Part shown: in pieces, positions 1 to 12,366 of the stretch
Layout of the letters: each line of letters begins with the position of its first letter
Numbering within the stretch: the first letter of the stretch is position 1
Assembly (NCBI GenBank): GCA_043825875.1
Contig: JBDRRF010000055.1
Coordinates: forward strand, 1-49,872
Length of the DNA: 49,872 nt
Direction: 5' to 3'
From: Pseudomonadota bacterium
GTDB taxonomy: Bacteria > Desulfobacterota > Desulfobacteria > Desulfobacterales > RPRI01
Position numbers and translations under genes: made by a program
Notes under the pieces: generated by a model
The model's database searches: none
Told to the model about the DNA's origin: nothing
The model's input: the letters and a program-made list of their open reading frames with translations, nothing else

Positions 1-76
1 CCAGTTTTTTTGCAACCTTCTCTGCAACCTCCTCTCCACCGCTGTAAGAAGCTCTGGAAATGGTTATGATTGACAT
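1..76 (-). CDS. 5' part of a cytidylate kinase-like family protein (runs off the window edge)
   Basis: Reverse strand reads MSIITISRASYSGGEEVAEKVAKKL, the typical IITISR..SGG N-terminus; SD AGGAGGAG at about 81-88. Confidence 0.75.
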   Translation of the reverse strand, partial: MSIITISRASYSGGEEVAEKVAKKL

Positions 77-342: not shown

Positions 343-1407
343 TTATACCTTCCCATAGCTTTCTTCTGTTGCAAACCTGGGTGATCTTGCTTTCCACATA
401 CTCCCAAGTATGATAACTGCGCCGGTTACAAGGGCAAAACACATTATTCCAAAGCTTATCTTCGTCATCAGATTTATATCTCCCGCGTTCATAGATACCA
501 GCCCGAGCTGATCTAAATACTTTGGTATTGCAAGCCCTCTACTGACCGCAACAAGAAGCATGATTGTACCCATTACAATTTTGATCATATGATCTTTTAC
601 ATATGTTGTTCCTATTGCCCCCAACTGAACACCAAAAAGAGATCCTGCAAGAATAAGAAGAGTAAGACGTATATCAATCATTCCATGCATTGCCCAGTTT
701 ATAGAACCCCCTAAACCCATAATAAATGCTATTACCAGCTCCGTTGCAGAAGCAATGATACTTGATGCACCTATAACATATATCATTCCTGGTACACCTA
801 CAAAACCACCAACAGCAATGGTTGCAGCCAGCATTCCTGCAGCAAAACCAACAGGTATAGTAAACCATAAGGATATTGTTAGATTTGCCTTTTTAAAATG
901 AATCATAGGTGGAAGATTTATAGACTGGAGTTTCCGAGCCAGCATGGTTACCTTCTCAACACCTCCGGTTTTTGCTATTTTCCATGCATCAAAAAAGACA
1001 TATCCACCAACTAATACAAGAATAACAACAAAAGCCAAACTTACATACAGATTGGATCCGGCTTCACCCCATTTTTCGAGGATGTAATGCTGAATCTGAA
1101 TTCCGACCTGAACACCCACTACTGCTGAAGCCGCCGTAACAATTCCAAGCTTTAGGTCCACCTGACCGTATTTAAATCGTTTAAATGCTCCCACCATGGC
1201 TTTTGGAAATTTATGGCACATATTGCTTGCCACAGCTACTGTGCCCGGTACTCCAAGACTCATCATGCCCGGAGTAAGAACAAATGCTCCACCTGATCCG
1301 ATAAAACCGCTTACAAGACCTCCGATAAAACCAATTACAAACAAAAACAATATCGACATAAGATTTAAATCAATAAATTTTAAACTCTCCGCTGCTAAAT
1401 CCTGCAT
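343..1407 (-). CDS. Sulfite exporter TauE/SafE family membrane protein
   Basis: GLVSGFIGSGGAFVLTP and GMLAATIAVGGFVGVPG repeated motifs; multiple TM helices; SD GAGGAGG. Confidence 0.85.
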   Translation of the reverse strand: MQDLAAESLKFIDLNLMSILFLFVIGFIGGLVSGFIGSGGAFVLTPGMMSLGVPGTVAVASNMCHKFPKAMVGAFKRFKYGQVDLKLGIVTAASAVVGVQVGIQIQHYILEKWGEAGSNLYVSLAFVVILVLVGGYVFFDAWKIAKTGGVEKVTMLARKLQSINLPPMIHFKKANLTISLWFTIPVGFAAGMLAATIAVGGFVGVPGMIYVIGASSIIASATELVIAFIMGLGGSINWAMHGMIDIRLTLLILAGSLFGVQLGAIGTTYVKDHMIKIVMGTIMLLVAVSRGLAIPKYLDQLGLVSMNAGDINLMTKISFGIMCFALVTGAVIILGSMWKARSPRFATEESYGKV

Positions 1408-1480
1408 ATTTCCTCCTCAAAATATTTATTAGCGATATAACTTAATATATACTCTACAATTTAAATGCTGTTTGTTTAAT

Positions 1481-2251
1481 TTATAGTCTGTGAAAAGGAT
1501 TGATGTATGCACGAGCCCGCGGTCTTTTTCTTGCAGCTTTTTTAGTTCGCACATCATCTTTAACACTCTTTTCAATAGTCACAACCTTTGTATCAGCATG
1601 AGCTGCTTCAATTCCCATAAGAGACCAAAAATTACTGGCAAATGCTCCATGGGCAAACGAAAAAGCAAAAACAGTCAAAATCGGCAATGCCGAATACCAC
1701 CCGCCTCGTGTGAAATAATCTGTTATTGTATCGGTATTTGTAAAAACAGCTGCATAGAGAGCTAAACTTATTGCACCATAGCCCAATGTTTTACCTACCG
1801 GCTTCTTTTTCTTAATTTCCTTTTCCATAGCCTTACCTCCTTTTATATTTTTATTTGTAAAAACACTGAAAACCGGTATCGTAACTTCTGCCGCGATCTT
1901 TTCTTTGCTTTCGTCAGATCCGGTTATTATAAATTCTATCCTTTTTACTTCATGGATAACTTTTTCAACTACTTCTCCTGAATCACCAAATCGTTGCTGA
2001 TAGTCACAATTTACTCCACCGGATGCAGCCCTGATCCCAAATAATTTGTTAAAATATTTTTCAGACTTACCGGATATTTCATTCAAACTTTTTTGAATAA
2101 CACTTAATGCAATAATGTCATAATTAAGGCGCTTCGCCACTTGAACGGCATAATCAATTAAATTTTCAGAAAACAATCCATCTTCACCAACAACTATAAT
2201 TTTTCTGTGCCCCTGCATTTTGCTGTTTTCTGAATTACTTTTTGAATTCAT
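1481..2251 (-). CDS. Universal-stress-protein-like N-terminal domain fused to a small 2-TM membrane domain
   Basis: RKIIVVGEDGLFSENLIDYAVQVAKRL is USP-like; hydrophobic C-terminal half; internal SD+ATG at 1828. Confidence 0.6.
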   Translation of the reverse strand: MNSKSNSENSKMQGHRKIIVVGEDGLFSENLIDYAVQVAKRLNYDIIALSVIQKSLNEISGKSEKYFNKLFGIRAASGGVNCDYQQRFGDSGEVVEKVIHEVKRIEFIITGSDESKEKIAAEVTIPVFSVFTNKNIKGGKAMEKEIKKKKPVGKTLGYGAISLALYAAVFTNTDTITDYFTRGGWYSALPILTVFAFSFAHGAFASNFWSLMGIEAAHADTKVVTIEKSVKDDVRTKKAARKRPRARAYINPFHRL

Positions 2252-2319
2252 AAATCAATTAACCTTTTTTAAAAAAATTTCAGCTATTCAGAGAAAAAAT
2301 GCTGTACGTTTAAATACAA

Positions 2320-2335
2320 TCCAAGTATTGTGCCA
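2320..2335 (-). promoter_or_regulatory. Sigma54 (-24/-12) promoter for the USP/TauE operon
   Basis: Reverse strand TGGCAC-AATAC-TTGGA matches TGGCAC-N5-TTGC with one change at -12; about 70 bp upstream of the ATG at 2251. Confidence 0.7.
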
Positions 2336-2413
2336 TATAAGAACAATATCTATAACTATCTATAATATTAGCATAATAAGATACTATCATATATCTGCTC
2401 ATTTCCCAGCAGT

Positions 2414-2517
2414 TATTGCACTATGCAACATAATATCAGGCAGTAATATATTTTATTATAATATCAATATTTTATAATCGTGTTACATCTTGCTAATAAC
2501 TGTTGCTAAATGCAACG
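2414..2517. promoter_or_regulatory. Palindromic enhancer-binding-protein sites, consensus TGTTGCA-N3-TGCAACA
   Basis: TATTGCACTATGCAACA (2414-2430), TGTTGCTAAATGCAACG (2501-2517), weaker TGTTACATCTTGCTAAT (2481-2497); IHF-like TATCAATATTTTA at 2462-2474. Confidence 0.6.
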
Positions 2518-2604
2518 TAGCCATCAGGATTGGAAATCATTGCTATTGTGCGTATTTTTCGGTAGTATCAGAAACATTTTCCAATATACAAAAAGGATGG
2601 AATT

Positions 2605-4626
2605 ATGATTTTTACAAAAAAGTCTGAAAAACAAATAGGAGAAGACAAAAGATCCAACCAGGAACTTTCAGAACTTCGTACTTCAATAGAGAAAGCAGGA
2701 TTATCCGATTCTCTTGTTTCTGTTGCAATAAGAGAGCTGGAACGCATGGAGAACATGGATGTTTCTGCGCCGGAATACAGTATAGGCTTTAATTATATCG
2801 AATACCTCCTATCTCTGCCCTGGCATAATTTCACAGATGACAATCTTGATTTAAAGCATGCTGAAAAAATAATGGAGTCCAAACATTATGGTTTGAATGC
2901 CATCAAAGAACGTGTGCTTGAATATCTTTCAGTAAGAACCCTTTTCAGTATCCAGAAATTTCATATAATGGTTGTTGATGATGAAGAAATAGCAAGAAAC
3001 AACCTTGAATATATATTACGCAAAGAAGGTTATGCGTTAAGTACGGCCGCAAACGGGCTTGAAGCATTAAATATTTTAAAAGAACAGCATATAGATCTGA
3101 TATTAACCGATCTGAAAATGGAAAAAATGGACGGCCTTCAATTGCTGGAATCGGCAAAAAAGATATCTCCTCATACCGAACTTGTTATGATAACCGGATT
3201 TGCAACTGTTACTTCTGCTGTAAACGCATTGAAAAAAGGCGCATTTCATTATCTTCCCAAACCTGTTAATCTGGATGAACTGCGCCAAACTGTGCGTCAG
3301 ATAATTGAGAAGAAAAAACATATGCAAATGACCCGAAGCCCTATACTTTGCTTTGCCGGCCCTCCCGGAACCGGGAAAACTTCGGTCGGAAAAGCTATCG
3401 CAGAAGCTTTGGGAAGAAATTTTGTTCGTATTTCTCTTGCAGGATTAAGAGATGAAGCTGATTTGCGTGGGCATCGAAGAACTTATGTAGGTGCAATGCC
3501 GGGAAGAATTATTAATGAGATAAAACGCGCAGGATCATGCAATCCTGTTTTTATGCTCGATGAAATTGATAAAATCGGGCAGGATTTTCATGGTGATCCG
3601 GCTTCGGTTCTATTAGAAATTCTCGATCCAGAACAAAACAGTAGTTTTAGCGATCATTATCTTGATGCCCCTTTCGATCTGTCGGGAGTAATGTTTATCT
3701 CAACAGCCAATATGGTTGAAAAGCTTCCTGCGCCTCTTTTAGACAGGCTGGAAGTAATTCGTTTTTCAGGTTACACGGAAAAAGAAAAAAGAAATATCGC
3801 AAAGCTTCATCTTATTCCAAAACAGATCAAAGAGCATGGTTTATCCGGCTTCAATATAGAAGTTTTAGATAATGCCATATCAAAAATCATAAATAACTAC
3901 ACACAGGAAGCAGGACTTCGCAATTTTGAGCGCGAAATTGCAACAATATTCCGAAAAATGGCAAGACTTTTTCTTCAAAACGGCAATGGTCCTGACAATA
4001 CAAATTCGATAACAGTTGATGATATACTTATTGAAAAACTACTGGGTCCCGTAAAATTTACCCATGAAATCGCTGGAAGAGAAAATACAGCCGGCATTAC
4101 AACAGGCCTTGTGTGGACTGAATTCGGAGGAGAAATTATCTTTATTGAAGCAAGTATGATGAAAGGAAACCGGCAACTTATCCTGACAGGATCAATGGGA
4201 AATGTTTTGCAGGAATCCGCCCAGACTGCCCTAAGTTTTGTAAGAAGCAATGCCGGGCAATTCGGAATAGATCCGGATTTTTTTAACGAAAAAGATATTC
4301 ATATTCACATCCCTTCAGGAGCAATACCTAAAGATGGCCCATCAGCAGGTATCACAATTGCCATTTCCCTTATTTCTCTTTTAACAGGAAAACCGGCAAG
4401 AAATGATATTGCTCTGACAGGTGAGTTAACTTTAAGCGGAAGGATATTAGGTATAAGCGGAATACGTGAAAAAATTCTTGCTGCTCAACGAAGCGGAATA
4501 AAAATTGTGGTTTTTCCTAAGCGTAATGAAACAGACATTGCCAATCTGGAACCGGAAGCCAAAGAAGGAGTTGAGATAGTACTTGCGGAAGACATTCCTT
4601 CTATTGCAAAGCTTGTAATGCAATAG
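2605..4626 (+). CDS. lon: Lon (endopeptidase La) protease lacking the N-domain, with an inserted response-regulator receiver domain
   Basis: HYGL..IKERVLEYL, Walker A GPPGTGKTS, GHRRTYVGAMPG, Walker B MLDEIDK, catalytic KDGPSAG and GIREK; REC (VVDDE, LILTDLKM, ITG, LPKP) at about 2959-3312. Confidence 0.93.
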   Translation: MIFTKKSEKQIGEDKRSNQELSELRTSIEKAGLSDSLVSVAIRELERMENMDVSAPEYSIGFNYIEYLLSLPWHNFTDDNLDLKHAEKIMESKHYGLNAIKERVLEYLSVRTLFSIQKFHIMVVDDEEIARNNLEYILRKEGYALSTAANGLEALNILKEQHIDLILTDLKMEKMDGLQLLESAKKISPHTELVMITGFATVTSAVNALKKGAFHYLPKPVNLDELRQTVRQIIEKKKHMQMTRSPILCFAGPPGTGKTSVGKAIAEALGRNFVRISLAGLRDEADLRGHRRTYVGAMPGRIINEIKRAGSCNPVFMLDEIDKIGQDFHGDPASVLLEILDPEQNSSFSDHYLDAPFDLSGVMFISTANMVEKLPAPLLDRLEVIRFSGYTEKEKRNIAKLHLIPKQIKEHGLSGFNIEVLDNAISKIINNYTQEAGLRNFEREIATIFRKMARLFLQNGNGPDNTNSITVDDILIEKLLGPVKFTHEIAGRENTAGITTGLVWTEFGGEIIFIEASMMKGNRQLILTGSMGNVLQESAQTALSFVRSNAGQFGIDPDFFNEKDIHIHIPSGAIPKDGPSAGITIAISLISLLTGKPARNDIALTGELTLSGRILGISGIREKILAAQRSGIKIVVFPKRNETDIANLEPEAKEGVEIVLAEDIPSIAKLVMQ

Positions 4627-4628
4627 TT

Positions 4629-5987
4629 TTAACTGTCAAGGTCATATCGTCTCAATTTTCTCCATAAGGATACCCTGTCTATACCAAGTATCTCCGCTGC
4701 TTTGGTTTTTTTATTTTCAACCTGTTCCAGCACCCATGAGATATACTCCATTTCGTTTTCTTCCAGTGTAAGAAATTCCCTTTGCCGTCTGCTTTGTATT
4801 CTGAATTTTAACTGCTGGAAATCCGGCGGGAGATGACGCATTGCAATAATATCTTTTTCAGCCATTGCCACAGCGTGTTCCATAATATTTTCCAGTTCAC
4901 GTATATTGCCGGGATACTCATAGTTTTCAAGCATTGCCATTACATCATCAGCAATATTGTCAATCTTTTTGCCCTGCATTTCAGAATATTTTATTAAAAA
5001 ATATCTACACAAAACCGGAATACTCTCTTTTCTTTGTGCAAGAGGCGGAACATGCAGTGTAATGACATTAAGCCGGTAAAACAAATCCTGACGAAAATTT
5101 CCTTCTTCGATCTCAAGTAAAAGATTTTTATTTGTTGCAGCAATCACCCGGATATCAACCTCAACTTCATCAGTGCCCCCTACCCTGATTAATGTCCTGT
5201 CCTGCAAAACCCTCAAAAGTTTTACCTGCATAGAAAGAGGCATATCCCCTATTTCATCTAAAAAAACGGTTCCGCCTTCGGCAGCCTCCAATAAGCCTTT
5301 TTTTACTCCGCGCGCGCCTGTAAAAGCTTCTTTCTCATGGCCGAATAGTTCATTTGCAAGCAGTTCCTCATTGAAAGCCCCGCAATTAACGGCAAGAAAT
5401 CTTTTCTCATAGCGATTACTCTGCTGGTGAATCATTTTAGCTACCAGTTCCTTGCCGGTTCCAGTTTCACCGAGTATAAGCACCGTACAATCCGTTGGTG
5501 CAATCTGCGCTACAGTCTTTTTCAGACTCTCCATTTTAGAATTGTTACCGGTAATAAAAGTAATTTCTTTTTTGTTTTCAATACGAAGCTTAAGTTCTGA
5601 AACTTCTTTTTTTAAAGATTTTTTTTCAAGAGCTTGTCTTACAAGTAACCTGACTTCATCTATTTTAACCGGTTTTGGTATATAATAAAAAGCACCTCCC
5701 TGCATTGCTTCTACTGCCGTAACTACTGTTGCGTATCCTGTTATAATGATAACTTCCGTATCAGGATACAGCTCTTTTGTCTTTTCAAGAACCTTAATGC
5801 CATCAACTACCTGCATTTTAAGATCTGTGAGCACAAGATCATATTCGGTTTTTTCAAGCTCTTTTAAGGCTGCAATACCGCTTTCTACCGGTACGGTTTC
5901 ATACCCTTCTTTTTTAAGGATATGATCCAGATTTTCTCTTGCAATCTGTTCATCATCCACAATTAATATCCGGGCAGTTTTTAACAT
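4629..5987 (-). CDS. Sigma54-dependent NtrC/AtoC-family response regulator (REC-AAA-HTH)
   Basis: REC domain; GETGTGKE; EAFTGA loop; FLDEIG; FRQDLFYRLNV; YPGNIRELEN; C-terminal Fis-type HTH. Confidence 0.95.
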   Translation of the reverse strand: MLKTARILIVDDEQIARENLDHILKKEGYETVPVESGIAALKELEKTEYDLVLTDLKMQVVDGIKVLEKTKELYPDTEVIIITGYATVVTAVEAMQGGAFYYIPKPVKIDEVRLLVRQALEKKSLKKEVSELKLRIENKKEITFITGNNSKMESLKKTVAQIAPTDCTVLILGETGTGKELVAKMIHQQSNRYEKRFLAVNCGAFNEELLANELFGHEKEAFTGARGVKKGLLEAAEGGTVFLDEIGDMPLSMQVKLLRVLQDRTLIRVGGTDEVEVDIRVIAATNKNLLLEIEEGNFRQDLFYRLNVITLHVPPLAQRKESIPVLCRYFLIKYSEMQGKKIDNIADDVMAMLENYEYPGNIRELENIMEHAVAMAEKDIIAMRHLPPDFQQLKFRIQSRRQREFLTLEENEMEYISWVLEQVENKKTKAAEILGIDRVSLWRKLRRYDLDS

Positions 5988-5998
5988 TATTATCTCCT

Positions 5999-7435
5999 TT
6001 ATGCCCGCTGATGCAGAGGAAGATGGATTATAAATCTGGTGCCTTCTCCGACCTCACTCTCAACCGAAACTAAGCCTTTATGCTGCTGAATAATCCCGTA
6101 GACGATCGAAAGACCCAGGCCTGTTCCTACACCAACTTCTTTTGTAGTAAAAAAAGGATCAAAAATCATATCAAAATTTTCTTCAGGAATGCCGACTCCT
6201 GTATCTTCAAAAGTTATAACAGCCATTCCGGCGCCATGATCCGGCTGGGCCGATATTTTTATCAGCCCGGACAAGCTTTCAATAGCCTGAACAGCATTGA
6301 TAATTAAATTCAGAAAAACCTCCTGAATCCGTTGTGTATCTATATCAATGACTAAATCTTTTGGTATATCTTTTTGAATTTCGATTCCGGAAGGCACCTG
6401 GCTTGAAACAAGTCTTATTGAGCGTTCCACCACTTCATCAAGAGAAGCAGGTACCAGGGCAAAATCCCTGTCACGTGAAAATTCTAAAAGCCCTTTTACG
6501 GTATCTCTGGCCCTGTTAACTTCCTGTTCAATATTTAAAAGCATCCTGTGCATAAATTCAGGTTCCGCTTTACTTCCTTCTTCCAAAAGTATCTGGCAGG
6601 AAGTTGAAATATTGTTTAGTGGATTGTTAAGCTGATGGGCAACACCTGAGGTAAGAATCCCTATTGATGACAGTTTTTTTGTTTGAACCAGTTGTTCCTG
6701 GCGTTTTTCAAGTTCTGCAACCATGCGGTTGAATGCTTCAACTACACGCTGTGTTTCATCCCTTGTATTTTGAACAGGAATAAAAGAAAAATTCCCATTT
6801 GCTATCTGGACCGTTGTTTTCTCAATAATCCTCAAAGGCTTTATTATCTTTCTTGCCATCATTGGTATTAAAAACATACCCATTGATAGAAATAATGTAA
6901 CATTAATGACAATATGTTTTTTAAGTTGACCGATTATAACAAGAATCCTTTCCCTTTCAAAACTTACAAGGGCTATTGACCTGTCTACAAGATTTTTCCC
7001 TTCCGCCCGCAGCCTGTCTTCCAGATCATTTTCACAGTCTTTCCTTCCCCCTACTACACAAACAGCCATTTGATCCATCAGCTTTTCATACTTTATTAAT
7101 CCCTTTTCAATCAATCCGATCTGAGGCGCACCTTTCATTTTTTTCATACCGGCGGGAATGCTTGAAAGCACTTCAAGGCCCTTTTTAATATAACTCCTAT
7201 TCTCAGATAGATCGTCCTGTGAACCGTAGAGAAGAAAGTTTTTTTCATACCGCCTTATTTCAAGTACTGTATTGCTAAGATCATCGGCAACTTCAACAAG
7301 GTGCTGTTTCTGTTCTATCTGATGCAAAAACCGATATGAATTTCCCCCGACAAATCCTATTACAAGAAGGCATATGGTAAGACCAACAATTATTTTTTTG
7401 CGTATATTTAAGGAGAATGTTTTGACTCTAAACAA
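5999..7435 (-). CDS. Membrane sensor histidine kinase (2 TM, HAMP, HisKA, HATPase)
   Basis: H-box AHQLNNPL, N-box [32 protein letters not shown] start with SD GAGGTG. Confidence 0.93.
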
Positions 7436-7478
7436 TTTATCACCTCATATAGGTCTCTAACTGTTAATTCCCGCAGCA

Positions 7479-8873
7479 TCATATCTTCCGTTTTAGACGC
7501 ACAACAAAAAAGCCATCCATATTATTAATATGAGGGTATGTTTTAATAAATCCTTCACTGTTCAAAAATGGCTTAAAAATCTTTTGGAAACAACGCACAT
7601 CATCAATTGTAAAATCAGAATGTTTTAATAAAAATTTACTTATTACTTCTTCGTTCTCTTCCGGTTCAGTGCTGCACACTGCATACACTATAATTCCCCC
7701 CGGTTTCAGAACCATTGCAAGATTGTCTAAAAAAAGAAATTGCCTTTTTTGATAAAATAACAGTTTATCTTCGGTCAGTTTCCATTTAATATCAGGATTT
7801 CTGCGTATAACACCCATACTTGAACAGGGAGCATCAATTAGAATCCGGTCAAACTTTCCGGAATAATTTTTAAGAAAAACAGGATCACCAAGATCTCCCA
7901 TGGATGTTTTAACATTTGTTATGCCAAGTCTTTCCATATCAAGGCTTAGCTTAAGCAGTTTTTCTTTCTCGTAATCTATTGCTGTAATACTGCCTTTGTT
8001 TTTCATTAATTGACCGATATGTCCTGTTTTCCCTCCAAGTCCTGCGCAGGCATCCATTATGGTTTCCCCTGGTTGCGGATCCAAAAGAAAAGCTACAAGC
8101 TGGGCGGCTTCATCCTGTACCTGAAACCATCCATTTTTAAAGGCTTCCATTTCGGAAATAGAATTCTTTGGGCGCAAAAAAGAAACTCCGTTGGGCGAAC
8201 AAACTGTCTGGCTGACATCCTGGACTTCTTGTTCAATACAATCAATAAGCTCATTACGGTTTGTTTTAAGTGTGTTTACCCGTATTGTGATAGGAGGAAT
8301 GTTGTTAATGGCATCGCACAGATCAATAGTCGATTTTTTTCCAAGGAGTCCGATCCATCTTTTTATCATCCATTCAGGAAAAGATTTGTTTACAGAAATG
8401 GCATATTCGGGCTTATTATTCAAATCAGGAAAACAAAGAGATTTATATTCTCGTCCGGTTCTTCGTAATACAGCATTAACATATCCTGAACTTTTAATTC
8501 CTGCTACATGTTTTGCAATTTCAACGGAAGTATTAACTGCCGCAGAAATGGGTATCCTGTTTAGATGTATAATTTGAAATAGTCCAAGGCGCAGAATATT
8601 TAAAATTTCAGTATTGGTTTTTTCCAAAGGCTGTTTGGAAAATTGTTGTATTATCCAGTCCAGCCGGCTACGCCATCTTAGTACTCCATAAACAAGGGCG
8701 TTAAATAAAGCCTTCTCCCTTTTAGGAAGATCATATTTTCTTTGGAATTCTTCAAGAAGATTATCAAGAGTATACTTTTTCTTATCTATCTTGTTCAATA
8801 AATGAAGAGCCAAAGTGCGGGTATCGTTTACAAAAAGCGAATCATTATTGCCATTTATTTGGAATTTATTCAT
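7479..8873 (-). CDS. rsmB: 16S rRNA m5C967 methyltransferase RsmB/Sun
   Basis: NusB-like N-terminus; QDEAAQ, DACAGLGGKT, ILIDAPCS, YAVCST.PEENE. Confidence 0.93.
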   Translation of the reverse strand: MNKFQINGNNDSLFVNDTRTLALHLLNKIDKKKYTLDNLLEEFQRKYDLPKREKALFNALVYGVLRWRSRLDWIIQQFSKQPLEKTNTEILNILRLGLFQIIHLNRIPISAAVNTSVEIAKHVAGIKSSGYVNAVLRRTGREYKSLCFPDLNNKPEYAISVNKSFPEWMIKRWIGLLGKKSTIDLCDAINNIPPITIRVNTLKTNRNELIDCIEQEVQDVSQTVCSPNGVSFLRPKNSISEMEAFKNGWFQVQDEAAQLVAFLLDPQPGETIMDACAGLGGKTGHIGQLMKNKGSITAIDYEKEKLLKLSLDMERLGITNVKTSMGDLGDPVFLKNYSGKFDRILIDAPCSSMGVIRRNPDIKWKLTEDKLLFYQKRQFLFLDNLAMVLKPGGIIVYAVCSTEPEENEEVISKFLLKHSDFTIDDVRCFQKIFKPFLNSEGFIKTYPHINNMDGFFVVRLKRKI

Positions 8874-8896
8874 TTTTCAAGGTTCATATTTTTTAT

Positions 8897-9838
8897 TTAC
8901 ACCAAAACAGTTCCTTGTGTAATATTATTGCAGCCGCATAAATAATTTTTTATATTTTGACGCTTTCCGGATTCTTCCTGAATTTCCTTTATTGACAAAA
9001 TGCCGTCACCTGTTGCAACAAAAAGATGATCTCTTGTCTCACCAACTATCGTTCCGGGAACCTGCTTTGCGTTGCCTGGAATAACATCTGAATCAAAGAT
9101 CTTGAGCCGTTTATCCCCATGCATGGTAAAAGCGCCAGGCCATGGGTTTATACCCCGAATGAAAGCTTCAATTTCTTTTGCTGTTTTTGACCAGTTTATA
9201 CGGCCATCTTTTTTTTTCAGCAAAGGTGCATATGTAGCAAGAGAATTATCCTGAGGCACCGGATTTAAGGTGTTTGCTTCAATTCCGGATAAAGTCTTTA
9301 TTAAAAGATCGGAAGCTGTGAGTGCCAGGCGGTCATGAAGTGAAGAATAAGTGTCTTCAGAAGAAATTATGACTTCGGCAGACAATAAAATATCACCGGT
9401 ATCAAGCCCTTTATCCATAAGCATTGACGTTATGCCTGTTTTCTTTTCCATGTTTATCACCGCCCACTGAATGGGAGCAGGCCCGCGGTATTTAGGAAGC
9501 AAAGAGGCATGGAGGTTAATTGCGCCTTTTTTTGGTATATCAAGGATCTTTTTCGGTAGTATATGGCCAAAAGCTATTACTACAAACAAATCCGGACAAA
9601 GCGAAGATATCAGGTCGGAAAATTCAGGAGTTTTAATGGATGAGGGTTGAGCGATACTATAACCTAACTCAAGCGCAGTTTCTTTAACAGGAGTAAATAC
9701 CAGTTTTCTGCCTCTTCCTTTGGGACGATCAGGTTGTGTTACAACAAGCACAACTTCATAACCGGTATTATGCAAAGCTTTTAAAGACGGTACAGCAAAG
9801 TCCGGAGTACCCATAAATATTATTCTTTGCTTATTCAT
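8897..9838 (-). CDS. fmt: Methionyl-tRNA formyltransferase
   Basis: FMGTPDFA, VTQPDRPKGRG, NLHASLLPKYRG.API, LDTGD. Confidence 0.97.
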   Translation of the reverse strand: MNKQRIIFMGTPDFAVPSLKALHNTGYEVVLVVTQPDRPKGRGRKLVFTPVKETALELGYSIAQPSSIKTPEFSDLISSLCPDLFVVIAFGHILPKKILDIPKKGAINLHASLLPKYRGPAPIQWAVINMEKKTGITSMLMDKGLDTGDILLSAEVIISSEDTYSSLHDRLALTASDLLIKTLSGIEANTLNPVPQDNSLATYAPLLKKKDGRINWSKTAKEIEAFIRGINPWPGAFTMHGDKRLKIFDSDVIPGNAKQVPGTIVGETRDHLFVATGDGILSIKEIQEESGKRQNIKNYLCGCNNITQGTVLV

Positions 9839-10343
9839 TTTGTTTCAAAAGCTTCTTAACGCGCCTTTTATAAAGTTCGCGCTTTAATGCGCTAATCCTG
9901 TCTATAAACAAAACTCCATTCAAATGATCTATTTCATGCTGCAAAACAACGGCAAGATGATCATTTGCTTCTATTCTTAATGGATTTCCTTCCCTGTCTA
10001 CAGCTTCAACAATTACTGACTCTGCTCTTTTCACATCCGATCTTAAATCGGGAACACTTAAGCAACCTTCACTTTGCGAAAGAGTTTCTCCTTCAGCTTC
10101 TATGATTACAGGATTTAAAAGCACCTGTATCGATTTTGGTTTTTCTGCCTGATCTATATCATAAACGATTATACTTTTATCGCATCCGATCTGGATTGAT
10201 GCAAGCCCGATTCCGGGTGCCCTGTACATAGTCTCTATCATATCATCTATAATTTTTTGGAGAGCACCGTTAATATCCGTTACCGGCTTTGCGGCATTTT
10301 TTAAAAACCTGTCAGGATATGTAAGTATATCAAGTAATGCCAT
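9831..10343 (-). CDS. def: Peptide deformylase
   Basis: GIGLA, EGCLS, QHEIDH motifs. Confidence 0.97.
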   Translation of the reverse strand: MALLDILTYPDRFLKNAAKPVTDINGALQKIIDDMIETMYRAPGIGLASIQIGCDKSIIVYDIDQAEKPKSIQVLLNPVIIEAEGETLSQSEGCLSVPDLRSDVKRAESVIVEAVDREGNPLRIEANDHLAVVLQHEIDHLNGVLFIDRISALKRELYKRRVKKLLKQNE

Positions 10344-10346
10344 TTG

Positions 10347-11420
10347 TTAACCTTCTTGATTTATAGATGCGGCCTTTCTTATTGTTATGCCTGTTATCAT
10401 TGCAGACACAAGACCCATTATTACTACCGGAATAATTTGTATAAAATGATTTATTAAAGTATAGCCTGCGGCATCCTTTGCAGATACACCGAAAAGGGCC
10501 ATAGAAAATATACCGCCTGCTTCCCAAAGCCCCCAGTATCCGGGAGCTGAAGGAAGGGCTATAAAAAAACCAACTATAATCATTACTACAGTAAATTCCA
10601 TAAAAGATATATCAATTCGTGGACAACCAAACGACAGCAGGTAATATGAAATAGCGCAAAGAAACCAGATAATCATTGTATAACAAATACAAATCAATAT
10701 GATCTTTGGACTTTTTATAAGTAAAAAACCATCTGAAAAATTTTTAAGGATTTTTTGTGCCGGAATACAAATCTTGTCTTCAATTTTTTTTTTAAAAGCT
10801 GCCCCGGCCAGGAAAAAAACAACAGGCAGTTTAGATATCAAATAGTCTATGATACTTCTTGTTTTATCAAATAATAATAAAAATATACCCAAAATAATCA
10901 TTGTGCCCATTACAATAATATTTTTTCCTGCTGATGTAAGAACATCTTTATTTAAATGGTAGCCTCCGAAATCAACAACCAAATCAGGTTTTATTGTAAT
11001 ATTTGCCATTATAAGCAAAAAAATCAGAAGCATAAAAATAACATCAAACAAACGATCTACAGCCACTGTTGCCAATCCTGTTGAAAAAGGCAGCTTTTCA
11101 TTCTTTAATAGTATGGCAGGTCTTGCAGCTTCCCCTACCCTGCCTGGTAATATACAGTTTATCATAAAACCTATCATTAGAGGATGAAAAGACTGAACAA
11201 AGCTTATTTTTCGGACTGGTTTCAGTATTGCCTGCCATCTTAAAGCTCTGAAAATAAAAGTTGATAATCCTACCAAACCCGCCGGTAATGCCCATAAATA
11301 GTTTATAGATTTAATATATTCCAACAAATCATCAACAGGAATATTTCGAAATGAAATATAAATTGCTGCAACAGATATTGCTGTTCCGATAACGAACGAA
11401 ATTGTTTTGTTTTTGTTCAT
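10347..11420 (-). CDS. Lysylphosphatidylglycerol synthase TM-domain (flippase-like) protein
   Basis: RALRW, N.ILPGRVGE..R, DRLFD, PSAPG..G motifs; multiple TM helices. Confidence 0.85.
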   Translation of the reverse strand: MNKNKTISFVIGTAISVAAIYISFRNIPVDDLLEYIKSINYLWALPAGLVGLSTFIFRALRWQAILKPVRKISFVQSFHPLMIGFMINCILPGRVGEAARPAILLKNEKLPFSTGLATVAVDRLFDVIFMLLIFLLIMANITIKPDLVVDFGGYHLNKDVLTSAGKNIIVMGTMIILGIFLLLFDKTRSIIDYLISKLPVVFFLAGAAFKKKIEDKICIPAQKILKNFSDGFLLIKSPKIILICICYTMIIWFLCAISYYLLSFGCPRIDISFMEFTVVMIIVGFFIALPSAPGYWGLWEAGGIFSMALFGVSAKDAAGYTLINHFIQIIPVVIMGLVSAMITGITIRKAASINQEG

Positions 11421-11430
11421 TTTATTGAAG

Positions 11431-12366
11431 CTACAATGAAAGTATGCTGCGTGCTTTATCTATATCTTTTTTTATTTGTTCCGAAAGTTCCGAAATTCCG
11501 GAAAATTTTAATTCATCTCTGATTCTTTCCACAAAATTTATCCGGATATTCTTGCCATAAATGTTTTCATTAAATTCAAGCATATGAACTTCGATAGTGA
11601 AAATATTATCATCAAATGTGGGACTGTAACCAATGTTTGCCACGCCTTTATACTTTATTCCATTATATTCAACAGTTACAGCATAAACCCCTTTTTGGGG
11701 ACATAACTCATCTACTATCTGTAAATTTGCAGTTGGAAAACCAAGAAGTTTGCCTCCCCTGTCGCGGCCTGTGGCAACTATCCCTCTTACCTGATAATAT
11801 CTGCCAAGAAGCTGTTGTGCATCTGCCACTTTGCCATCTTCTACAAGCTTGCGAATTTTTGTGCTGCTGATTCGTCCGGGCATTGTGTTTGTAACCGATA
11901 CCCAGTCAGCCACAATAACTTCAAAGCCATATTCCTTAGAGCAAGCTTTTAAAAATTCGGTATTTCCTTCCCGATTTTTACCGAAAGCATAATCGTTTCC
12001 AACAACAATAGCTTTCATTCCTATCTTATTAATAAGCAAATCCCTTACAAATTCCAATGCCGGTAATTGAGCAAATTCTGGAGTAAAAGGAATACATATC
12101 AAGACATCCAGCCCTGTTTTTTCAATAAGTTCAACTTTCTGTTCATGAATGGTAATAAGCGGAAGACGCCCGTTTTGTCTTAAAATCTTAATCGGATGCG
12201 GATTAAAGGTAATAGCTACTGATGTTCCGTTTATTGCATCTGCTTTTTCAATAACTTCATGAAAAAGTGCCTGGTGACCTATATGTACTCCGTCAAAATT
12301 TCCTATAGTTACTACGGCATTTTTAAATGGATTTTTAATTGATTCAATGTTATTTATAACTTTCAT
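11431..12366 (-). CDS. ribF: Bifunctional riboflavin kinase / FAD synthetase
   Basis: TIGNFDGVHIGHQ, ISSTKIR, LGFPTAN, GVYAV. Confidence 0.97.
   Translation of the reverse strand: MKVINNIESIKNPFKNAVVTIGNFDGVHIGHQALFHEVIEKADAINGTSVAITFNPHPIKILRQNGRLPLITIHEQKVELIEKTGLDVLICIPFTPEFAQLPALEFVRDLLINKIGMKAIVVGNDYAFGKNREGNTEFLKACSKEYGFEVIVADWVSVTNTMPGRISSTKIRKLVEDGKVADAQQLLGRYYQVRGIVATGRDRGGKLLGFPTANLQIVDELCPQKGVYAVTVEYNGIKYKGVANIGYSPTFDDNIFTIEVHMLEFNENIYGKNIRINFVERIRDELKFSGISELSEQIKKDIDKARSILSL

Follow-up and report, generated by a model that had tools for sequence, protein, structure and literature searches.

A Lon protease that carries a receiver (REC) domain inside its ATPase module raises the question of whether an AAA+ protease is coupled directly to a sensor kinase and, if so, in which direction and against which target. 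The gene, here called REC-Lon, lies on a bacterial contig of 49,872 nucleotides, the whole of which is referred to as the window (Table 1). The initial annotation of this DNA had proposed that phosphorylation of the REC gates the protease. Phosphorylation control remains the most likely reading after the analysis reported here, whose observed basis consists of the protein architecture, the intact residues, the orthology, the gene linkage, the DNA sites and the kinship between the inserted REC and that of a neighbouring response regulator.

Table 1. Features of the REC-Lon locus, with positions in the window
Feature	Position	Strand	Remark
Start of cytidylate-kinase-like gene	1..76	-	cut by contig end
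TauE/SafE-family transporter, 354 aa	343..1407	-	DVU3299 counterpart by place and length, not by full-length alignment
Usp-like domain fused to small hydrophobic domain	1481..2251	-	equivalent to DVU3301 together with the following gene (DVU3300 by position)
Sigma-54-type -24/-12 site directed at the Usp/TauE operon, non-consensus -12	2320..2335	-	80 bp beyond distal box
Distal DVU3305-type palindromic box, one mismatch	2415..2429	.	published motif
Proximal DVU3305-type box, exact	2502..2516	.	87 bp from distal box, 103 bp before lon start
REC-Lon protease, 673 aa, DVU3303 orthologue	2605..4626	+	TIGR00763 705 bits (cutoff 608)
Lon pre-ATPase helices, residues 17-113	2653..2943	+	no N-domain ahead
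Inserted receiver domain, residues 120-242	2962..3330	+	Pfam core 121-231
Predicted phosphoacceptor Asp169	3109..3111	+	120/120 close relatives; 20/20 distant loci
AAA+ core and lid	3340..3984	+	Walker A K258, pore Y294, Walker B D319/E320, R381, R439
Lon protease domain	4015..4620	+	Ser580-Lys623 dyad
Sigma-54 response regulator (REC-AAA-HTH), DVU3305 orthologue	4629..5987	-	
Sensor histidine kinase (HAMP-HisKA-HATPase), DVU3304 orthologue	5999..7435	-	

Architecture of the REC-Lon protein

Pfam places in REC-Lon a Response_reg domain (residues 121-231, E 2e-29), an AAA domain (248-388), a Lon_lid (409-460) and a Lon_C domain (471-672), and the Lon N-domain family is absent among the eight Pfam matches of the protein. 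Solved Lon structures align to residues 8/17-114 and again to 242/243-669, bypassing the REC, and no solved Lon among those listed spans the insert. The alignment to the M. taiwanensis Lon begins at residue 234 of that protein, of which the laboratory construct without N-domain starts at 242. The EYL and GPPG motifs are 143 residues apart in REC-Lon versus 17 in the three full-length Lons of the same genome, and the insert therefore comprises 126 residues. Pfam, the alignment to solved Lons and the motif spacing together bear out the arrangement first annotated, a complete REC within the ATPase module of a Lon devoid of its N-domain.

The insert has the features of a canonical receiver, with acidic pair, Asp, Thr, aromatic residue, Lys-Pro and a fold of five strands and five helices, its motif residues being D125/D126/E127, D169, T197 and K219. 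The remainder of the protein passes as LonA in TIGR00763 on score, Walker A and B, pore tyrosine, arginine finger and Ser-Lys dyad. A LonB-type assignment was rejected, both scores (90 bits for TIGR00764, cutoff 517; 71 bits for TIGR02902, cutoff 723) lying far under the family cutoffs. With LonA proteins of known structure (B. subtilis, 3M6A; M. taiwanensis, 7FD4) REC-Lon shares the pre-ATPase helices, the AAA+ motifs, the lid and the Ser-Lys protease, and it differs from them by the missing N-domain and long helix and by the 126-residue REC insert. Judged by these sequence features it is a derived LonA and not a canonical one, because the N-terminal substrate-binding domain is missing.

A monomer model of REC-Lon, built with 148 more varied sequences, reached a pLDDT of 91.6 and a pTM of 0.87; an earlier one, based on 116 close sequences, was discarded (pLDDT 72, below 50 at residues 318-386). 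The retained model has a normal REC fold, whose helix 5 (residues 223-242) is separated by three to four residues from the Walker A strand (247-251) that follows; as a monomer it is a model from which a phospho-switch cannot be read. In fold comparisons the whole model best matches ordinary Lons, and the best solved matches of its REC are NtrC1-type receivers. In regulators of the NtrC family, helix 5 of the REC leads into the AAA+ module. The NtrC1/DctD activators thus resemble REC-Lon at this joint, and differ in that the predicted output of REC-Lon is a protease ring and in that its REC lies inside the Lon module and not at the N-terminus.

Conservation of the insertion and reality of the fusion

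The family alignment was made from the 120 top-ranking proteins of 8000 scored; every one has the REC family, and in none is a Lon N-domain family listed. In every one of these close relatives the distance from EYL to GPPG is 143 residues, 6-45 residues stand ahead of the first helix, and the acidic pocket, Asp169, Thr197, Tyr216, Lys219, Walker A and B, the pore Tyr, both arginines, Ser580 and Lys623 are invariant. The REC, Walker, pore and Ser-Lys residues named in the initial annotation were all found and belong to this invariant set. Column conservation among the 120 amounts to 0.86 in the REC, 0.91 in the AAA core and 0.83 in the protease domain. In a sample of 20 more remote REC-Lon loci, at 52-63% identity, the insert is always of the same length and neither the Asp nor the Lys is ever lost; the acidic pocket is altered in two of these (L095 and L101), and a third (L108) has His in place of the pore Tyr. 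The phosphoacceptor, whose loss in homologues would have spoken against phosphorylation control, is accordingly present in all 120 close relatives and at all 20 distant loci.

Of 409 candidate stretches from public genomes, 338 proved to be relatives by a query spanning the REC junction, and the 80 that were kept belong by title mostly to Thermodesulfobacteriota or "deltaproteobacteria", with one from Acidobacteriota. REC-Lon is matched at E 1e-40 or better in 47 of the 401 sampled genomes of the phylum, two of the matches being partial. Of the 150 best-matching clusters at 50% identity, four extend through the REC as one continuous match, and no REC is present in 94 others that were aligned. 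When the REC was excluded, 25 REC-Lon cores formed one branch against 32 ordinary Lons in a quick tree (SH-aLRT 99), which is consistent with a single origin of the family.

The possibility of a misassembly, raised when the fusion was first annotated, is ruled out: the junctions are sound, given the same 143-residue spacing in all 120 relatives, the junction in 338 of the 409 stretches and a Logan contig that covers positions 1400-7500 without difference, from a run that may itself be the source of the present DNA. A passenger REC, or a fusion produced by assembly, in a protein that serves as a spare housekeeping Lon is very improbable. The decayed acidic pocket of two distant members would fit such a reading, which is largely refuted by conservation, namely by one family with one insertion site, REC conservation that matches the protease domain, presence in the 47 sampled genomes and a DVU3303 copy of the same design.

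Some residues are specific to the family. Ala279 (3439-3441), beside the pore loop, is Ala in 93% of 54 REC-Lons, the corresponding residue being Gly in 99% of 94 ordinary Lons; E305, Q326 and G61 are further examples.

The counterpart in Desulfovibrio vulgaris

The architecture of REC-Lon is not new. In the excerpted text of Rajeev et al. (2011; PMC3333781), DVU3303 of D. vulgaris is a response regulator "containing a lon protease" and forms a three-component system with the kinase DVU3304 and the sigma-54 regulator DVU3305, and one sentence already proposes its phospho-gating; the window gene adds one member to the family noted there. In the excerpts of PMC4641369, DVU3303-3305 are marked as having no sigma-54 promoter. 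Growth in chlorate is improved in mutants of DVU3303, DVU3304 and DVU3305, whose cofitness exceeds 0.9, and impaired in mutants of DVU3299 (-2.3), according to the fitness data excerpted from PMC10102598, which concern D. vulgaris only. The D. vulgaris genes are co-transcribed with lon first, and the cofitness may therefore be partly polar. The initial view that no characterised example is known thus fails for the architecture, described in the excerpts of PMC3333781, and stands for the biochemistry, for no biochemical or structural study of REC-Lon (phosphorylation, activity) was found in the open-access literature, subscription papers being outside the scope of the search. The shared-kinase evidence, the coupling of helix 5 to Walker A and a target within the module were not found in print in the papers searched.

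A scan of metagenome contigs with the published DVU3305 primer gave 66 loci, of which 65 have no Lon-core match and one, L150, carries the module. Of the published marks, this locus carries the two boxes (at -89 and -8), the sigma-54 site and both regulator primers, and its gene lengths equal those given for DVU3303, DVU3305, DVU3302 and DVU3301; the reading frame of its kinase ends some five codons early, so that L150 is to be taken as a near-identical copy and not as the proven type strain. Its Lon matches that of the window at 51% identity over 648 aa, the insert being aligned without a gap, and the best matches of its Lon, kinase, regulator and DVU3301-like protein in the present genome are the window genes (comparison run in one direction), the kinase matching 5999-7435 at 46% and the regulator 4629-5987 at 51%. 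The window gene is, on this comparison of sequences, the orthologue of DVU3303. The conserved start of the family (M-I-F-F-R-K) is found in L150 (1421-1481) at residue 21 of the DVU3303-type frame; the annotated start is therefore probably 20 codons early, which would move the -8 box to about -68.

The window and D. vulgaris have in common an N-domain-less LonA with the REC at the same site, the same boxes and a sigma-54 site only on the TauE side. In the window, unlike in D. vulgaris, the kinase and regulator genes do not follow lon in one transcript but converge on it from the opposite strand, the small hydrophobic domain is fused to the Usp-like one (they are separate genes in L150), and a cytidylate-kinase-like gene follows TauE. 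The sigma-54 contact loop reads EAFTGA in the window regulator and GAFSGA in DVU3305; EAFTGA occurs in 50 of 65 related regulators versus one of the 32 such loops found in the genome.

Gene module and operator sites

The initial annotation had recommended a look at gene neighbourhoods, and had itself missed what was found there, that is the kinase, the sigma-54 regulator, the TauE/Usp operon and the operator boxes. Among 45 related loci with full flanks, TauE is present in 43, the Usp-like gene in 43, the regulator in 36 (at 55% identity or more) and the kinase in 35 (at 50% or more), and seven loci have neither a regulator nor a kinase orthologue within 7 kb. At the 20 distant loci, under looser thresholds, the corresponding numbers are 18 for the kinase, 17 for the regulator, 13 for the Usp-like gene and nine for TauE. 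Since the surveyed loci are related, none of these counts is independent of the others. The Usp-like gene is the most tightly linked to REC-Lon and is a candidate adaptor or substrate; its assignment to Usp is weak (E 0.026), its family having no confident Pfam match and weak Usp links in the Atlas.

Four loci (L018, L019, L026 and L031) have, downstream of lon and in its orientation, a kinase and a regulator that are more diverged (33-46%). A cytidylate-kinase-like gene stands after TauE in 29 of 80 loci and a tandem Usp gene in 16 of 80, by rough gene calls, and the missing tail of the cytidylate-kinase-like gene (PF13189) that is cut at the start of the window appears to be located, with a tandem Usp gene, on contig C49 at about 90943-91903. 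Beyond the kinase, minus-strand genes at 7479-12366 are presumably of housekeeping type (RsmB-like, fmt, def and ribF-like, named by reading their translations); the RsmB-like gene matches none of the 80 related loci, and the module is therefore taken to end at the kinase. A comparison with one RNA run gave short pieces of unrelated sequence, without bearing on expression.

Within the window alone, two DVU3305-type boxes were found where 0.86 are expected, and 19 of 100 shuffles reach two; this count is not above chance, and it is where the boxes lie and how well they are conserved that speaks for them. Upstream of lon, 67 of 76 loci with enough flank have a box (no more than one mismatch) within 400 bp, versus none of 76 coding controls, and 12 of the 20 distant loci have one within 600 bp. 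At loci with two boxes, a sigma-54-type site is found on the TauE side in 53 of 57 and on the lon side in one of 57, a post hoc though controlled count, as the pattern had been relaxed after two poor scans (2 of 76 loci with a wrong spacer and 4 of 74 with too strict a -12). The -12 element departs from the consensus in nearly all members: of the 57 loci, 33 have A after TTG, 19 have T, two have G and two have C, and one has no site; the published DVU3302 site is of the same kind, also with T after TTG. Given its sigma-54 site on the TauE side, the Usp/TauE operon is most likely activated by the regulator. On lon, which has no mirror-image sigma-54 promoter, the effect of the regulator could be repression.

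Two receivers and a probable shared kinase

Among the 113 RECs of the genome, the best match of the Lon REC is the REC of the neighbouring regulator (52%, 134 bits; next 105), and the relation is reciprocal. At nine positions chosen in helix 1 and the beta5-alpha5 region, presumed to face the kinase as in known kinase-regulator interfaces, the two RECs agree in six, and every other REC in at most four. The I-A-N core of this surface is common to both RECs at 47 of 51 loci having both genes; at the other four (L018, L019, L026 and L031) the surface of the adjacent regulator differs and the Lon REC retains I-A-N. In quick tree searches without bootstrap, 13 Lon and 13 regulator RECs group apart from 38 other RECs (SH-aLRT 92), and a larger tree groups the Lon and regulator RECs with a support of 83 and one other REC inside. 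One kinase serving both RECs fits these observations; common descent alone, such as a duplication of the REC of the regulator, would also yield the likeness.

The kinship of the two RECs can be read in other ways. If the Lon REC were a docking module that replaces the N-domain, binds the regulator REC or the Usp-like domain depending on phosphorylation and hands this partner to the pore, the motor itself remaining unswitched, one would understand why N-domain loss and REC gain coincide in all 120 relatives, why the REC is 52% identical to that of the regulator with a highly conserved alpha4-beta5 face, and why a Usp-like gene is a neighbour at 43 of 45 loci with full flanks and at 13 of the 20 distant ones, including some without a TauE match. 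We consider this docking role unlikely: the REC is fixed by two short linkers of constant length and has no flexible tether, and a Lon that destroys the regulator predicts opposite fitness of lon and regulator mutants, which are alike in the excerpted data of PMC10102598, unless the effect is polar. Less probable still is that the REC acts mainly as a phosphate sink or competitor tuning the phosphorylation of the regulator, with a protease independent of it. Such a role requires neither an insertion of fixed length by Walker A, as kept in the 120 close and 20 distant members, nor the protease dyad that is conserved throughout, even though the presumed kinase-facing residues are common to both RECs and at 30 of 66 loci no more than 55 bp separate the proximal box from the lon start, on a side without sigma-54 site, an arrangement resembling feedback.

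A possible branched two-component output

The most likely reading, with nearly an even chance of being right, is the allosteric activation of REC-Lon by kinase-driven phosphorylation. The neighbouring sensor kinase would phosphorylate two receivers with near-identical kinase-facing surfaces. The first belongs to the sigma-54 activator, which would bind the two boxes and drive the divergent Usp-like/TauE operon; the second, inside Lon, would provide a second output, making REC-Lon a response-regulator protease. Phosphorylation of Asp169 may shift helix 5 of the REC, which is joined through a linker of fixed length to the Walker A strand, and this shift would switch ATP-driven proteolysis, most likely on. 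Devoid of the N-domain, the protease would ignore general damaged proteins, which the three ordinary Lons could handle, and would act on a narrow target in the module, limiting or resetting the TauE-operon response. The separate steps carry different weight: phosphotransfer from the kinase to the Lon REC is quite probable, gating of the protease by phosphorylation is somewhat favoured, and, if the protease is gated, the direction "on" is clearly the better supposition.

In the excerpts of PMC8087443, N-domain-less M. taiwanensis Lon retains ATPase, peptidase and casein activity and is inactive on a heat-damaged substrate; by analogy, the natural REC-Lon should therefore be active and narrow in scope. 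A Lon that is active by default also suits a gate of the opposite sign, in which a module protein is held at a low level by the unphosphorylated protease until the signal lifts this restraint, and the inhibitory serine phosphorylation of Lon in Xanthomonas citri (excerpts of PMC5784255) provides a precedent. This inverse gate is rather improbable, since loss of the kinase and loss of lon change fitness in the same direction, which activation fits better if the kinase acts as a kinase in chlorate, polarity aside (PMC10102598, excerpted data). The X. citri case (Ser654) resembles the phosphorylation control supposed here and differs from it in that the modified residue is a serine on an ordinary Lon and not the Asp of a receiver in the chain.

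The same excerpted fitness data contain a paradox that simple activation leaves unexplained: in chlorate, growth benefits from losing DVU3305 and suffers from losing DVU3299, the target of this regulator (PMC10102598). A protease that limits a product of the TauE operon would explain the results for the lon and kinase mutants, and the DVU3305 mutant needs an added assumption, such as lon expression depending on the regulator, or polar effects. It is conceivable, if a little less probable than activation as such, that the kinase directly switches a Lon with a motor-embedded REC, in parallel to an activator with the same kinase code, and that this Lon, once switched on, removes a product of the operon induced by the activator, or the activator itself.

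Receivers also serve proteolysis elsewhere, CpdR and RssB being receiver adaptors of ClpXP. Both names occur among the family matches of REC-Lon, with the difference that there the receiver is a separate adaptor protein and here it lies within the protease chain.

Significance of the family

If the gating is true, REC-Lon would be a natural single-chain coupling of a sensor kinase to an AAA+ protease, and regulated proteolysis would be a direct output of a two-component system, with no separate adaptor. It would also offer a clean system for the control of the Lon ATPase without the N-domain. The protein is tractable, being soluble and 673 residues long, with a named kinase and a model host in which a mutant phenotype is available. 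Its value lies in the family as a whole and not in the copy of the window.
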